The translations under genes and the position numbers were made by a program. This document shows positions 6,801 through 11,434 of a DNA stretch of 64,000 bases, piece after piece; the stretch's first letter is position 1; every line of letters begins with the position of its first letter. This DNA comes from an uncultured Spirochaetota bacterium (lineage in GTDB: Bacteria > Spirochaetota > Spirochaetia > SZUA-6 > Fen-1364). The DNA lies in assembly GCA_963820525.1 (NCBI GenBank), contig CAWGAA010000001.1, positions 2,272,001-2,336,000 on the forward strand. The letters run 5' to 3'. The notes beneath the pieces are model-generated. The model was not told where the DNA came from. It did not search any database and saw only the letters and a program-made list of their open reading frames with translations.

Positions 6801-7259
6801 ATGTACGATACGAAAAAGGATATCCTCAAGGCTCTGGCATCCACGCCAAAGGCGCTCGCCGCGCTTCTCCCTGCGGTTCTGGCGCGGCAGTCGAAGAGGA
6901 CGAGCCCCGCTTCCGCCGTGTGGTCAGCCGTCGAGATCGTCTGCCACCTGCGGGACGCCGAAGAGAGGGCCCTGGAGAGAACCCGGCGGATGCGAAACGA
7001 ATCGAACCCCTTCATCAAGGGCTACGACCAGGATCAGCTTGCGCGGGAGCGCAACTACAAGGCCGACGATCCAGAAAAAGCGCTCTCCGCGTTCACCTCC
7101 TTCCGCCAGGAGCACATCGCGGAGCTTGAAAGCCTTCCGTTCCCGGATTGGGAAAGGACGGGGGAGCACGAGGAGATGGGAAGGATCACGATCCTGGCCC
7201 ACGCGCTGCACATCGTATCGCACGATCTGAACCATCTCGCCCAGCTTTCAGCGTCGTAA
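6801..7259 (+). CDS. DinB family protein
   Basis: WSAVEIVCHLRDAE and HDLNHLAQL His motifs; GGGAGG before ATG 6801. Confidence 0.85.
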   Translation: MYDTKKDILKALASTPKALAALLPAVLARQSKRTSPASAVWSAVEIVCHLRDAEERALERTRRMRNESNPFIKGYDQDQLARERNYKADDPEKALSAFTSFRQEHIAELESLPFPDWERTGEHEEMGRITILAHALHIVSHDLNHLAQLSAS

Positions 7260-7538
7260 GATGACTTTTAGTTGTGGCGTCGGGGCGATTCATCCCGGTC
7301 CCGCCGCCCCCGGCGGCTTCCCCATGACGCGTACAACGTGCAGGCTGCACGCGGGCTGTGGCCCGGGTCCCTCGTCGCTGGAGCTGCGCGCCCATCGTCT
7401 CCCGGGAGGAGGCCTTTACGCGCACGATGGAGTGGCTGCGCCGGCAGGAGGAAATCTCCCAAGGTCGGAAGCCTCGATATCTGGAGGCTCGGGGCTGAAA
7501 TCCCGCCAAAAGGGATTATCTTTCACTTGGTGATCACC

Positions 7539-8294
7539 ATGCGCTGGCGGATCTCGGCTTGTCTTTCGATGCTCTGGCTCTCCATTGCGGCATTCCCCCC
7601 GCCTTCCCACGCGGACAGCTCATCCCTCAATTTTCTCAACAGGATCCTGGGATGGAACGAGGGGGAGGCGGCGAAAAGCACGGAGAGGCTCTCCAGCGGA
7701 AGGATTCTCCTCACGGATGATCCGGCAAGCTACGCCATAGACCAGACGCTGGAAAAGTACGTTCGGGGATTGGACAGGATCATGCTGAACAGGACCGACA
7801 TGATCTCCTACTACCGCGTGCAGGACTCCTACCTGGCCGGCGTGATCGACATCCTCCAGCGGATCAGGGACCTGGCATTCCAGCGCGCCAACGGCATCCT
7901 CTCTGATTCCGACAGGGAGCTCATTGACGCCGAGATCGGCCAGCAGTATGACGAAATTGTCTTCACCCTCGCCCGGGCCGAGTTCAACAAGAAGAAGATA
8001 TTCGAGGACCTGATGGAATCCGAAATCGTGCGCAGTAACTTCACGCAGGAGAAATACTTCCGTCTCGAGAACATAGATTCGCTCCTGAGCTTTTTCATAC
8101 GCCAGCGGGCCGCTGCCGGGGCGAAGATGAAGGGCCTCGAGTTCGCCATCCCCGGCGAAGCGATTGCCCGCGAGAACATGATCAGCGCTCAAACCCACCA
8201 GGACACTGATTTCGCAAGCGAAGTGAGCGCATTCAAGAAGAACCAGCTTCTGATACTCGTGAACATCCTGATGCTCGAGCACACCGGGCCCTGA
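7539..8294 (+). CDS. Divergent flagellin homologue with predicted N-terminal Sec signal peptide
   Basis: KSTERLSSGR..DDPASYAI, ILQRIRDLAFQRANGILSDSDRELIDAEI, AEFNKKKIF (flagellin N domain); QRAAAGAKMKGLE..ENMISAQ..DTDFASEV (C domain); preceded by MRWRISACLSMLWLSIAAFPPPSHA. Confidence 0.78.
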   Translation: MRWRISACLSMLWLSIAAFPPPSHADSSSLNFLNRILGWNEGEAAKSTERLSSGRILLTDDPASYAIDQTLEKYVRGLDRIMLNRTDMISYYRVQDSYLAGVIDILQRIRDLAFQRANGILSDSDRELIDAEIGQQYDEIVFTLARAEFNKKKIFEDLMESEIVRSNFTQEKYFRLENIDSLLSFFIRQRAAAGAKMKGLEFAIPGEAIARENMISAQTHQDTDFASEVSAFKKNQLLILVNILMLEHTGP

Positions 8295-8442
8295 CGTGAC
8301 AACGACGCCTTCGATGTCAAGGACCGCATGGAGCTTATCCAGAAGCTGCGCGGCGCTTGGCCTATGGTCATGCGATGAGGGGGAGCGAGTTCGGCTTCTT
8401 TGTGTCGATCAGTTGAAAACCGAGGGATCCAATCAAAAAAGC

Positions 8443-8471
8443 TTGCAAAATGCGCGCATCGCTTATATACT
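8443..8471 (+). promoter_or_regulatory. Sigma70-type promoter of the TRAP operon
   Basis: TTGCAA (8443-8448), 17-nt spacer, TATACT (8466-8471). Confidence 0.7.
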
Positions 8472-8489
8472 GTGGCTCTATCGGAACCA

Positions 8490-8508
8490 TGTTTCACTTA
8501 GTGAAACA
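8490..8508. promoter_or_regulatory. Palindromic operator, probably for the IclR/KdgR-like regulator
   Basis: Perfect 9-1-9 dyad TGTTTCACT-T-AGTGAAACA between the promoter and the AAGGAGG RBS; a 15/19 match lies upstream of kduI. Confidence 0.72.
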
Positions 8509-8537
8509 GGCATTAGCCACTATTTAAAGGAGGTTTT

Positions 8538-9518
8538 ATGAAGAGAATCATGTTTTTGTTCCTCATGGTCGCCGTTGCGTCATTTGCGTTCGCGGCAGAT
8601 AAGGTCATCGAGCTCAAGTTCGGTCATTACTCGGTGGAGAGTCATCCCGCCCATCTCGCAGCCGTCATGCTGGCGGACAATGTGGCCGCGCGCACCGGCG
8701 GCGCCGTCAAGATCACGATCTTTCCCAACAGCAAGCTCGGCAGCTCTCAGGAGATGTTGGAGCAGACCGTGCTCGGCGCCCTCGACCTGGTGATCCCGAC
8801 CGAACCGGCGCTCGCCAAATACTCGGCGAAGTTCAACCTCGTCGGCGCTCCTTTCGCCTTCAAGGATTACGCGGCAACCGATAGATTTTTCGCAGGCCCA
8901 TTCCTCGCGTGGGTCGTTCCCGATCTCGACAAGGCCGGCCTGCAGTATATTGCCCGCTGGGAGTGGGGCTTCCGAACCTATACCAATTCCAAACGGCCGA
9001 TCCAGAAGCCGGAAGACATGAAGGGGCTCAAGATTCGAACGCCTCCCGACTTCGTGAACCAGGAGACGGTCAAGGCGCTCGGCGGAATAGCTCAAACCAT
9101 CGCGTTCGCTGAGCTCCCGATGGCCTTGAAACAGGGCGTCATCGACGGCCAGGAAAACCCGATCGGCGTCATCTACTCGGGCAAGATGTACGAAACGCAG
9201 AAGTACCTGTCCATCCTCAACTATACTTACGTCGGCACCCACCTTGTCATGAACAAGGCCTCTTTCCAGCGGCTCACAAAGGACCAGCAGAAGATCCTCT
9301 TGGAAGAGGCGAAAAAAGCGGGCGACTTCATGATCAAGTCGGTCCGCGATCAGGAAGCCGGCCAGATCGCCGAGATGAAGAAGCTCGGTATGCAAGTCAA
9401 TTATCCCGACACGGCCCCCTTCAAGGCCGCCACCACGGCGGTTTATGATGCGCTCAAAGCCCAGGTCGGAGAGGCCGACTACAAGACCTTCATGGAAATG
9501 CTCGACAAGAGCAAGTAA
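8538..9518 (+). CDS. dctP: TRAP transporter substrate-binding protein
   Basis: Signal peptide; IFPNSKLG, WGFR, DMKGLKIRTP, ALKQGVIDGQENP. Confidence 0.95.
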   Translation: MKRIMFLFLMVAVASFAFAADKVIELKFGHYSVESHPAHLAAVMLADNVAARTGGAVKITIFPNSKLGSSQEMLEQTVLGALDLVIPTEPALAKYSAKFNLVGAPFAFKDYAATDRFFAGPFLAWVVPDLDKAGLQYIARWEWGFRTYTNSKRPIQKPEDMKGLKIRTPPDFVNQETVKALGGIAQTIAFAELPMALKQGVIDGQENPIGVIYSGKMYETQKYLSILNYTYVGTHLVMNKASFQRLTKDQQKILLEEAKKAGDFMIKSVRDQEAGQIAEMKKLGMQVNYPDTAPFKAATTAVYDALKAQVGEADYKTFMEMLDKSK

Positions 9519-9538
9519 GCAGGCTTCCGGGAGCTTCC

Positions 9539-9570
9539 GGCGGGGTGTCCAGCGGGGCGCCCCGCCTTTG
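9539..9570 (+). terminator. GC-rich hairpin after dctP (partial terminator or mRNA stabiliser)
   Basis: GGCGGGGTGTCC...GGGCGCCCCGCC followed by TTTG. Confidence 0.45.
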
Positions 9571-9605
9571 TATCGGCCAGCGGCTCGCCACCCAGGGAGA
9601 ACGAC

Positions 9606-10895
9606 ATGCTCACCGTTTCAGTTTTCGTGGTGCTCCTGCTCCTCATCCTGATAGACCTTCCGATCGTGGTTGCCATCGGCCTCACGGCGGTGATCTTTTT
9701 CGTCGGCCTGGGCCAGGGCACCTTCCTCGCCATGCTGCCCCAGCGGATGTATTCGGGAACCACGGGCTTCACCCTGCTCGCCATCCCCTTTTTCATTCTC
9801 GCCGGCAACCTCATGAACAGCGGCGGGATTACCAGCCGCATCTTCCGCTTTGCCAAGGCCCTGGTCGGGCACGTCCCCGGCGGCCTCGGCCAGGTGTCTG
9901 TCATCTCCTCGATGATCTTCTCCGGCATGTCCGGCTCCGCCGTCGCCGACGCCGCCGGCCTCGGGCAGATCCAGCACAAGGCCATGGTCGACAACGGCTA
10001 CAAGCCCACGATCTCCGCCGCCATCGTCGCCTCGGCATCCACAATCGGGCCCGTCATCCCGCCTTCCATCCCCTTCGTCCTCTACGGGGCTCTCACCACG
10101 GTGTCGGTGGCGCGCCTGTTCCTGGCGGGCTTCGTCCCCGGCGTCCTCATGGGGCTTGCGCTCATGATCGCGATCGCGATCATGGCGAAGCCGCGAGGCT
10201 TTCCCCGATCCACTCGGGCGCGCTTCAGGGAAGTCCTGGTGAGCTTCAAAGAAGCGTTGCTCCCGCTTCTCGCGCCGGTCATCATCATCGGCGGCATTCT
10301 CTCCGGCATCTTCACGCCCACCGAGGCGTCCGTCGTCGTGTGCCTCTACGCGCTTTTCCTGGGCTTCCTCTACAAGGACCTCAAGCTGAAGGACCTGCCC
10401 GACATCTTCTGGCAGTCGATCAAGCAGTCCGTGTCGCTTCTGTTCATCATCGCGGCGGCCAACTTCTTCGGGTGGCTGGCGATCTACCAGAGGATCCCCG
10501 ACAACATCATTGAAACCCTCACCAGCTTCAGCGCGACGGGCCCGGGCATCATGGCCATGATCATCGTCATCGTCATCATCCTCGGCTGCTTCATCGAAGG
10601 AAACGCGATCTTCCTCATCACGATTCCCATCTTCCTTCCGATCGCCAAACAGTACGGCTTCGACCTCGTCAACCTCGGCGTCGTGATGACGCTGCTCATC
10701 ATGATCGGAAACCTCACCCCACCTGTCGGCATGTGCCTATTCGCCGTGTCGAGCTTCAGCAAGATCGGCATCGGAGAGCTGGCCAGGGAATCGTGGCCGT
10801 ACATCCTCGGCATCCTCATCGTCACGATCCTCATCGCGTATGTCCCGCAGATCGCCACTTTCCTGCCGAACGCGGTGATGGGCCCGGGACAGTAA
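9606..10895 (+). CDS. dctM: TRAP transporter large permease
   Basis: LLAIPFFILAGNLM, SGMSGSAVADAA, IPPSIPF, GIFTPTEAS, TPPVGM. Confidence 0.95.
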   Translation: MLTVSVFVVLLLLILIDLPIVVAIGLTAVIFFVGLGQGTFLAMLPQRMYSGTTGFTLLAIPFFILAGNLMNSGGITSRIFRFAKALVGHVPGGLGQVSVISSMIFSGMSGSAVADAAGLGQIQHKAMVDNGYKPTISAAIVASASTIGPVIPPSIPFVLYGALTTVSVARLFLAGFVPGVLMGLALMIAIAIMAKPRGFPRSTRARFREVLVSFKEALLPLLAPVIIIGGILSGIFTPTEASVVVCLYALFLGFLYKDLKLKDLPDIFWQSIKQSVSLLFIIAAANFFGWLAIYQRIPDNIIETLTSFSATGPGIMAMIIVIVIILGCFIEGNAIFLITIPIFLPIAKQYGFDLVNLGVVMTLLIMIGNLTPPVGMCLFAVSSFSKIGIGELARESWPYILGILIVTILIAYVPQIATFLPNAVMGPGQ

Positions 10896-10909
10896 GGAGC
10901 CAGTGATAT

Positions 10910-11434
10910 ATGAAAGCCTTGTCCGTAATTGAAAAGATCGAGGGCGCCGTCACGACGGTCCTCAAGGTGATCACGATCGCGCTGTTCGTGTTCCTCACCC
11001 TCATCCTCACGGCGAACGTCTTCGTGAGATTCGTCCCGATCATGTCCCTGCATTGGCTGGATGAGATCGTGGAGATGAGCTTCGCGGCACTCGTGTTCTA
11101 CGGGGCCGCGGCGGTCTGGATGGCAAAGGGGCATTTCAGCGCCGGAAACTGGATCGGCAAGGTGGTGAAGAACCGGCGGGCGCGCGTCCTCTATCGCCTC
11201 CTCGTGGAGATCGGCTCGCTCCTCTTCGTTGCGATCTTGTTCAGGTATTCGCTCGACCTGACCAGGCGCTCCCTGGAGGTCACGGCGGTATTCCAGATCC
11301 CCAAGAGAATCCTCTACGCCTGCATGCCCGTATCGTCCGCCATCATGATCCTCTACTCCGTAAAGAACGTCATCCTGTTGGGGATCGAGGCGATCAAGCC
11401 GAAGGCGGGTGAAAACGGGCGGGCCGTCACGTAA
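10910..11434 (+). CDS. dctQ: TRAP transporter small permease
   Basis: Four TM segments, VFVRF..WLDEI motif, follows dctM. Confidence 0.9.
   Translation: MKALSVIEKIEGAVTTVLKVITIALFVFLTLILTANVFVRFVPIMSLHWLDEIVEMSFAALVFYGAAAVWMAKGHFSAGNWIGKVVKNRRARVLYRLLVEIGSLLFVAILFRYSLDLTRRSLEVTAVFQIPKRILYACMPVSSAIMILYSVKNVILLGIEAIKPKAGENGRAVT

Follow-up and report, generated by a model that had tools for sequence, protein, structure and literature searches.

A flagellin paralogue with a predicted Sec signal peptide in uncultured Spirochaetota, a candidate accessory of the periplasmic flagellum

Flagellins are the classic cargo of the flagellar type III export apparatus and carry no cleavable signal. A departure from this rule is predicted for a gene of an uncultured Spirochaetota bacterium (GenBank assembly GCA_963820525.1, contig CAWGAA010000001.1), located in a stretch of 64,000 nucleotides that is referred to here as the window. 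By homology, the gene is a minimal flagellin paralogue made up of D0 and D1 helices only, in which the first few canonical residues appear to have been replaced by a classical cleavable signal peptide. The gene product (the query) and its leader-bearing relatives are called family A below. With moderate confidence, we favour the explanation that it is a Sec-exported, periplasmic paralogue of flagellin that serves as an accessory to the periplasmic flagellum. This proposal draws on homology to flagellins, a leader kept throughout the family, purifying selection, and the separation of the gene from the flaB locus and from the leader motif of flaB genes, all of them features of sequence. The flagellin superfamily is itself known; what would be new is a changed export route within it. 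No description of a Sec-exported or signal-peptide-bearing flagellin was found in 8.4 million full texts, a collection whose coverage does not extend to subscription journals.

The Pfam family Flagellin_N matches residues 35-157 of the query with 69.6 bits (cut-off 26.6; E 3.6e-19) and is found in 48 of 48 family-A members. Flagellin_C gives no match to the query at E≤1 and reaches E≤0.01 in 11 of the 48 members, the query not among them. A preliminary description of the gene had proposed a search for both domains, and in the query Pfam recovers the N-terminal one only. BLASTP aligns residues 32-246 with FlaB, the core flagellin of spirochaetes, from the same genome (28% identity, E 1e-22), and hhalign aligns the profile of the 48 members with 12 canonical flagellins over 232 columns (probability 100%, E 2.9e-40). 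In the latter alignment the mature Asp26 falls on FlaB residue 5, so that the leader replaces only about four residues of the canonical start. The query ends at FlaB position 271-276 of 286, leaving the last 10-15 FlaB residues without a counterpart; neither BLASTP nor hhalign recovers a full-length C-terminal D0 helix. About 45 residues of FlaB mid-D1 are also missing, and the protein has hardly any variable region, as the preliminary description had observed. The flagellin motifs that it quoted are all present, with KSTERLSSGR at residues 46-55, LQRIRDLAFQRANG at 106-119, AEFN at 147-150, QRAAAGA at 189-195 and DTDFASE at 222-228.

Database names for family-A members include "hypothetical protein", "flagellin" and "flagellin-like hook-associated protein FlgL", and JGI calls several of them FlgL-like. 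FlgL, the hook-filament junction protein 3, has Flagellin_N in common with family A, but the query lies below the cut-off of the FlgL equivalog TIGR02550 (64.1 bits against 127.2), and the host encodes a separate FlgL of 415 residues beside fliW and csrA. The NCBIfam flagellin models match the query in two stretches, all far under their equivalog cut-offs. The FlaA domain (PF04620) has no Pfam match in the query.

The structural model agrees with this assignment. AlphaFold2 (AF2) predicts the mature protein from 48 sequences with a pLDDT of 84.8 and a pTM of 0.82 (an earlier model from 17 sequences had a pLDDT of 69), giving helices throughout and one short hairpin, with low confidence limited to residues 17-28. 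The best Foldseek matches are spirochaete FlaB cores (6pwb and 9lrz, from e.g. Leptospira biflexa; E ~2e-5), followed by other flagellins only. VIA-align superposes 120-130 D1 residues (Z 9.2-9.6, rmsd 2.7-4.9 Å), and all 50 of the rows listed are flagellin or FlgL, which assigns the protein to the D1 helical-bundle fold. Among these D1 matches are the cell-surface flagellins p5 and p6 of Sphingomonas sp. A1 (PDB 2zbi, 3k8v, 3k8w; Z ~9), which differ from family A in being full-size flagellins of another phylum and, to our knowledge, have no Sec leader. No fused or longer form was detected at E≤1e-20 among proteins of 441-2000 residues, which is weak evidence. Four separate stretches of one 1101-residue protein (P0075) match the family-A profile (E 7e-43), and it may be a repeat protein with several flagellin N-terminal units.

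The leader is a family trait and more than chance, since relatives keep it. A word-indexed search returned 16 close relatives (43-86% identity, 193-294 residues), after which the matches fall abruptly to ordinary flagellins (E 1e-14). An exhaustive profile search of 1.84 billion representatives found about 45 clusters, counted at 50% identity, that match once and over the full length (E from 6e-104 to about 1e-45; lengths mostly 230-280 residues), beyond which ordinary two-stretch flagellin matches begin. Search hits pooled with genome copies amounted to 75 sequences, 73 of them distinct, and 65 were used after eight without an N-terminus had been set aside; N-terminally complete means at least 14 residues before the conserved Leu aligned with L30 of the query (the anchor). 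These 65 rows are kin, a few being alternative start calls of one gene, and are not independent. A Kyte-Doolittle mean of at least 2.0 in some 10-residue window occurs in 62 of the 65. The same measure reaches 1.9 within the first 35 residues in none of 120 ordinary flagellins (maximum 1.77, median 0.76), a control set of other flagellin matches from which P0093 was left out as a member of a second leader-bearing set, family B. Besides the query, the sequences under 2.0 are two with the shortest N-termini (1.43 and 1.69), which look like short start calls. Lys or Arg stands directly ahead of the hydrophobic run in 60 of 65, and a basic residue, a hydrophobic core and a nearby −3/−1 small-residue site occur together in 57. 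The 25-residue leader, with its basic start, hydrophobic core and S-H-A site in place of the flagellin start, is present as first described and is kept by relatives.

Cleavage was assessed by position, because the loose −3/−1 rule is often satisfied by chance. In 41 of 65 sequences the rule holds at precisely the fourth residue ahead of the anchor, whereas 1000 composition-preserving shuffles average 13.2 and never exceed 25; within one residue of that place it holds in 60 (shuffle mean 30.2, maximum 41). The −1 column contains Ala 30 times, Gly six, Ser five and Thr two, and the +1 column is mostly Glu, Asp and Gln. The query has the positive n-region, hydrophobic h-region and small −3/−1 residues of a signal peptidase I substrate. 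Export by Sec is predicted with high confidence, and cleavage after Ala25 is likely, if slightly less secure. The leader might instead be an uncleaved signal anchor that tethers a flagellin-like domain to the periplasmic face of the inner membrane. Some of the uncharged h-regions of the family, which run from 11 to 29 residues, are long enough to span a membrane, and cleavage itself is a prediction. Yet the small residues are concentrated at one aligned position, Pro or Gly often follows the core, and the core of the query has only 15 residues, which makes an anchor improbable. These traits are expected more of signal peptidase I substrates than of anchors. A lipoprotein was considered as well and rejected: ISAC at residues 5-8 resembles a lipobox, but no hydrophobic region lies ahead of it and most relatives have no Cys there. 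The leader of DctP, encoded downstream in the window (MKRIMFLFLMVAVASFAFA/ADK), is a textbook signal peptide and offers a comparison for that of family A.

The eight codons before the anchor contain no in-frame ATG, GTG or TTG in 13 of 16 distinct DNA loci, so the conserved N-terminal D0 helix cannot be made there without the leader; a start codon behind the hydrophobic stretch is found at L008, L012 and L048. The possible starts of the window gene are Met1 and Met11 only. A longer version of its frame opens at 7272, and the extra part is only an Arg/Pro-rich stretch that is not common to relatives. Homologues do not start after the hydrophobic stretch, as the preliminary description had required of a genuine leader. 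A further alternative holds that the protein is still a type III substrate whose hydrophobic start is either mis-called or a form of the export signal peculiar to its lineage. Export signals of that system are poorly defined and the mature part begins only about four residues into a canonical flagellin, but such a start is seen in 0 of the 120 ordinary flagellins and most loci offer no other. The C-terminal region, which is bound by the export chaperone FliS in other flagellins, is shortened, and the translational leader motif of flaB genes is missing; continued type III export is very improbable on these grounds. For the role of the protein, the preliminary description had offered an added filament component, a cap, an independent polymer or a decoy as candidates. 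Delivery of a flagellin fold to the periplasm by a Sec-type leader, the first part of its interpretation, is strongly supported by comparative evidence, because the leader pattern is conserved, the cleavage motif is fixed in position and alternative starts are mostly absent, and also because the flaB-type leader motif has been lost and the C-terminal D0 helix shortened.

The mature part is under strong purifying selection, as estimated from codon comparisons that took in the window copy together with 11 copies from genomes and used the 12 pairs at or above 50% identity. Across these pairs dN is 0.155-0.420, while dS is saturated, being not computable in nine pairs and above 2.4 in three; the three computable dN/dS ratios are 0.063, 0.107 and 0.117. 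The leader changes faster in amino acid sequence (pN 0.38-0.70) and keeps its hydrophobicity. Mean top-residue fractions of 0.59 for N-terminal D0 and 0.56 for the C-terminal helix show these segments to be as conserved as the D1 core, and the linker (residues 156-175) is poorly conserved (0.32-0.34). At 31 positions the family is at least 85% conserved, and the flagellin assembly motif LQRIRELxxQ is retained. Conserved D0 segments and LQRIREL in a protein that needs neither a type III signal nor FliS suggest that these surfaces still make protein contacts, which could be with further copies of the protein, with FlaB or with flagellin-recognising proteins. It is hardly credible that the gene is a decaying flagellin duplicate without function. 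Flagellin_C escapes detection by Pfam in the query and the gene lies outside the flagellar loci, but reading frames are intact in 12 genomes, about 45 clusters have full-length matches, and the dN/dS values (dS being saturated) and conserved positions contradict decay. The pseudogene-like evolution that the preliminary description had named as a danger is not seen.

The host is an ordinary sheathed-flagellum spirochaete, judged by its gene content. Its genome (5.05 Mb, four contigs) contains five Flagellin_N loci, namely three canonical flagellins, the family-A gene and the 415-residue FlgL, together with FlaA sheath genes, FliW and CsrA. FlgL, FliW and CsrA are encoded together on the same contig as the family-A gene, about 1.2 Mb away. 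Because the host is a spirochaete with periplasmic flagella, a periplasmic flagellin is a more coherent idea than it was from the sequence alone.

The translational leaders of family A and canonical flagellins also differ. All but one of 16 distinct canonical spirochaete flaB genes have the motif [ACT]A[AT]GGAGG no more than 22 nt from the start, and it is present in 0 of 16 distinct family-A genes and 0 of 7 family-B genes; the raw rows, before removal of duplicates from overlapping loci, were 17 of 18, 0 of 20 and 0 of 7. An upstream A/C-A-A/C-GGA is additionally present in 12 of 18 flaB rows. Canonical flaB genes share the ribosome-site motif TTCAAGGAGGA (L001, L003, L020, L022, L024, L027, L030, L032, L033, L035), and many have a GCAAGGAxGC-like element about 35-45 nt upstream, an arrangement that looks like paired CsrA sites. 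In the available text of two reports, CsrA binds GGA motifs in the 5′ untranslated regions of flagellin genes, with cases from B. subtilis, C. jejuni and B. burgdorferi (PMC4894983; PMC12327847). The flaB start-site motif may likewise be a CsrA site, and if it is, family A stands outside the control by which flagellin synthesis is coupled to the type III channel. A sigma-28 promoter pattern is absent upstream of family-A genes and equally absent at the flaB controls, and is hence uninformative. A scan of positions 7100-8600 for sigma-70 promoters and terminators, itself a weak one, found no promoter-like site upstream of the gene.

Family A appears, as far as is visible, to be confined to uncultured Spirochaetota. 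Among 401 sampled Spirochaetota genomes, its profile gives full-length matches (E≤3.8e-60) in 12, which belong to seven families, including all five sampled genomes of genus g101 and both of genus g128; all other matches in the 401 are at 2.5e-38 or worse. Across all phyla, a pattern scan that covered 185,579 species genomes found 11 loci, nine in Spirochaetota lineages (labelled Spirochaetota, Spirochaetales, Spirochaetaceae, Brevinematales or Rectinemataceae), two labelled only "bacterium" and none in another phylum. The nearest Atlas cluster, with 116 members, is mostly Spirochaetota. FlaA is present in the host and in 11 of 11 other carriers, and carriers also have ordinary flagellin matches. 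Replacement of the FlaA sheath by family A is thereby ruled out; because FlaA is kept in every carrier, the protein would add to the known sheath and not substitute for it. A divergent 219-residue family-A-like protein (L034, genome G175) keeps the leader and the YLNSIL motif and groups with the family on a long branch; it is without the RLSSG...DDPA segment and has no Pfam Flagellin_N match.

Another leader-bearing, flagellin-like set, family B, occurs in other spirochaete genomes. Its members have 270-290 residues, comprising a hydrophobic leader, a novel segment (consensus YLIIPEGxNxLIYG) that replaces N-terminal D0, Flagellin_N from about profile position 9-23, and a truncated Flagellin_C (positions 1 to about 65-72 of 86). 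Family B was found in 24 of 401 genomes (E≤1e-60), none of which carries family A, so that the two together occur in 36 of the 401 sampled genomes, all from uncultured lineages. The families have a shortened C-terminal helix in common, and in both the RNxxDGIS of canonical flagellins is represented by N-x-x-D-M/L-x-x-Y. A quick maximum-likelihood tree of 82 rows recovers each of them as a clade (SH-aLRT 100) with a long stem. Family B groups with the spirochaete FlaB clade, and the placement of family A is not settled. A tree constrained to unite A and B has a log-likelihood 48.6 above the free quick tree (p-AU 0.92). A single origin is thus not rejected and is possibly correct, though long-branch attraction could give the same result.

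In the explanation favoured here, the pre-protein would cross the inner membrane through the Sec translocon and not through the flagellar type III channel, and signal peptidase I would cut after Ala25 and free the mature protein into the periplasm, the compartment that holds spirochaete flagellar filaments. The conserved D0 and D1 helices would then bind the filament, or flagellin-recognising proteins, from outside, making the protein an outer-layer, lattice-end or regulatory accessory of the periplasmic flagellum. Some association with the flagellum is marginally favoured, and it is put forward more tentatively than Sec export and cleavage. A role bound to the lattice, as an outer layer or at an end, is a narrower and doubtful proposal. 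It is also rather unlikely, if conceivable, that the family represents a second supply line, in which a flagellin paralogue delivered by Sec assembles onto the filament from outside, beside channel-borne FlaB. Under such an arrangement the protein might, equally speculatively, build either a structure at the end of the filament or an outer layer that matches the lattice of FlaB; and families A and B, non-overlapping in distribution, might have one origin, a suggestion made with the same reserve.

These proposals can be set against known proteins. FlaB belongs to the same superfamily, has a minimal D0-D1 build, and resides in the compartment predicted for family A. Unlike family A, FlaB starts with MIINHN, has no hydrophobic leader and is exported by way of the flagellar channel; its C-terminal D0 helix is complete, it has about 45 more D1 residues, and its genes carry the AAGGAGG leader motif and lie near flgL-fliW-csrA. 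In the tree, family A is a clade separate from FlaB. Unassembled periplasmic FlaB is reportedly handled by HtrA in Borrelia, in work attributed to Zhang et al. in 2019. The known spirochaete flagellar sheath proteins are described as Sec-exported in the accessible part of a bioRxiv manuscript (10.64898/2026.02.04.703737), and FlaA (PF04620), FcpA/FcpB, FlaAP and FlaL1/FlaL2 would thus provide precedents for the delivery mode proposed here. None of them is a flagellin homologue, unlike family A: the same text describes FlaA and FlaL2 as beta-rich and FlaL1 as a HEAT-repeat protein. The new T. denticola sheath proteins FlaL1 and FlaL2 were also considered as the identity of family A and rejected, since HEAT-repeat and beta-sandwich proteins are not flagellin-like.

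FlaC of Campylobacter jejuni and other Campylobacterales is, in the available portions of two papers, a secreted flagellin-like protein of about 250 residues that lacks the central domains and is dispensable for motility (PMC4863622; PMC5466977). By this description it resembles family A in size, in the absence of central domains and in a gene set apart from the structural flagellins. It differs in exiting through the flagellum, with no Sec leader in the text available (PMC5466977), and in acting on the host, beyond the bacterial cell. A Campylobacterota cluster named "putative flagellar secreted protein" ranks third among the nearest Atlas clusters (score 0.95), as a neighbour in features only.

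Several observations weigh against the favoured explanation. The link to the flagellum comes from homology and phylum restriction and from no other source. No flagellar Pfam family, and no neighbour shared across groups, was found among 112 open reading frames (ORFs) of 12 family-A loci, and the family-B neighbourhoods (23 ORFs, seven loci) contain no flagellar gene or conserved partner. Family A is patchy and was not found in the largest families of the 401-genome sample; with such a spread it is not a general requirement of periplasmic flagella. Global superposition of the AF2 models on filament-form flagellin fails (rmsd ~27 Å), and since only D1 superposes, no statement can be made on the orientation of D0. 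The shortened C-terminal D0 and deleted mid-D1 may block flagellin-like polymerisation. As for export, the leaders were scored with crude hydropathy, charge and small-residue rules and not with a trained signal-peptide predictor, and the hydrophobic core of the query, which contains Ser, Cys and Trp, scores 1.96, among the weakest of the family. No RNA runs with the gene sequence were listed, only DNA metagenome runs.

Another alternative is a Sec-exported protein unrelated to flagella. The flagellin helices would then be a repurposed scaffold, serving as an independent periplasmic or surface polymer, as a receptor or adhesin like the Sphingomonas sp. A1 flagellins, or as a protein of the outer membrane or medium. 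The absence of a flagellar neighbour and of a shared regulation motif speaks for such a role, as do the signalling proteins that recur as neighbours within subgroups (HDOD-HD, cyclase-2TM and CheW-LysM). Flagellin homologues outside motility are also on record, including FlaC (PMC4863622) and, in the accessible text of another source, the surface flagellins of Sphingomonas sp. A1 (PMC9751261). This alternative is nevertheless unlikely, as the family is seen only in the one phylum that has periplasmic flagella and the D0 termini, which are assembly parts in flagellins, are conserved like D1, with LQRIRELxxQ kept.

The neighbourhoods of family A vary between groups. Four loci of one genus share an SDR protein and an HDOD-HD protein, and three other loci share a cyclase-2TM protein; all-against-all BLASTP of 39 unannotated neighbours found similarity only inside close groups. 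In three family-A loci (L044, L046 and L047), the gene upstream encodes a large adenylate/guanylate cyclase fused to 2TM, of which only the 2TM part is visible in the truncated locus L047. Directly upstream of the family-A gene of L049 lies the gene of a 782-residue protein with two CheW-like domains and a C-terminal LysM domain, which is unusual in that a chemotaxis adaptor of the cytoplasm is joined to a module that binds peptidoglycan. In the window, 11 ORFs lie within 5 kb of the gene and none has a match to a flagellar Pfam family (eight match other families and three match none), as the preliminary description had stated. The neighbours include a DUF2229 CoA-enzyme activase, a carotenoid-synthesis-family protein, a DinB-like ORF, a TRAP transporter and sugar-acid enzymes. 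The TRAP genes are ordered dctP, dctM, dctQ and are followed on the other strand by genes of an SDR protein and a KduI/IolB-family protein; the block looks like sugar-acid uptake and catabolism. GC content is 0.54-0.58 over the family-A gene (positions 7500-8500) and 0.62-0.68 in the 3.5 kb upstream. The TRAP genes are likewise low (0.56-0.57), so the drop is not a clean mark of foreign origin. The Shine-Dalgarno-like element ahead of the gene is presumably complementary to the 3′ tail of 16S rRNA. Coordinates are collected in Table 1.

Table 1. Features of the family-A gene and of related loci (positions without a prefix refer to the window)
Feature	Position	Strand	Basis or remark
Coding sequence of the family-A leader-bearing flagellin paralogue, 251 aa	7539..8294	+	intact ORF, stop codon included
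Shine-Dalgarno-like GGTGATC, 3 nt 5′ of ATG	7529..7535	+	read from sequence
Predicted Sec/signal peptidase I signal peptide, residues 1-25	7539..7613	+	family leader pattern
n-region (MRWR) and c-region (PPPSHA) of predicted signal peptide
h-region of predicted signal peptide, ISACLSMLWLSIAAF	7551-7595	+	15 residues
Predicted cut A25/D26	between 7613 and 7614	+	S-H-A, then DSSS
Mature N-terminal D0-like segment, residues 26-55, DSSSLNFLNRIL...RLSSGR	7614..7703	+	BLASTP vs FlaB, hhalign
Flagellin_N (PF00669), residues 35-157, profile positions 12-136	7641..8009	+	Pfam match
Short, poorly conserved linker, residues 158-177, in place of ~45 FlaB mid-D1 residues	8010..8069	+
C-terminal flagellin-like helices, residues 178-246, C-D1 and shortened C-D0 ending NQLLILVNILML	8070..8276	+	BLASTP, hhalign
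TRAP genes dctP, dctM, dctQ	8538-11434	+
FlgL, FliW and CsrA genes of host	C1:1054707-1056553
Family-B genes	L018:1477-2337, L021:1492-2304, L023:1459-2292, L025:1468-2304	-	P0093 is a further member
Family-B genes	L026:1501-2322, L029:1498-2361, L031:1501-2343	-
Cyclase-2TM genes upstream of family A	L044:6271-9879, L046:7253-9811, L047:152-1528	+	L047 truncated
CheW-LysM gene upstream of family A	L049:7546-9891	-	782 aa
Divergent family-A-like gene	L034:1480-2136	+	219 aa

If the proposed route is correct, family A would contain the first flagellin exported by the general secretory pathway. A Sec-routed flagellin family in a phylum with periplasmic flagella would show the flagellin fold delivered and used from outside the filament, and would extend the candidate components of spirochaete flagella by a new class, at a time when the make-up of the sheath is not yet fully established. 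Because the carriers are all uncultured, families A and B would have been missed by work on Treponema, Borrelia, Leptospira and Brachyspira. They would also offer an example, simple and open to test, of one protein family that has switched its secretion pathway.

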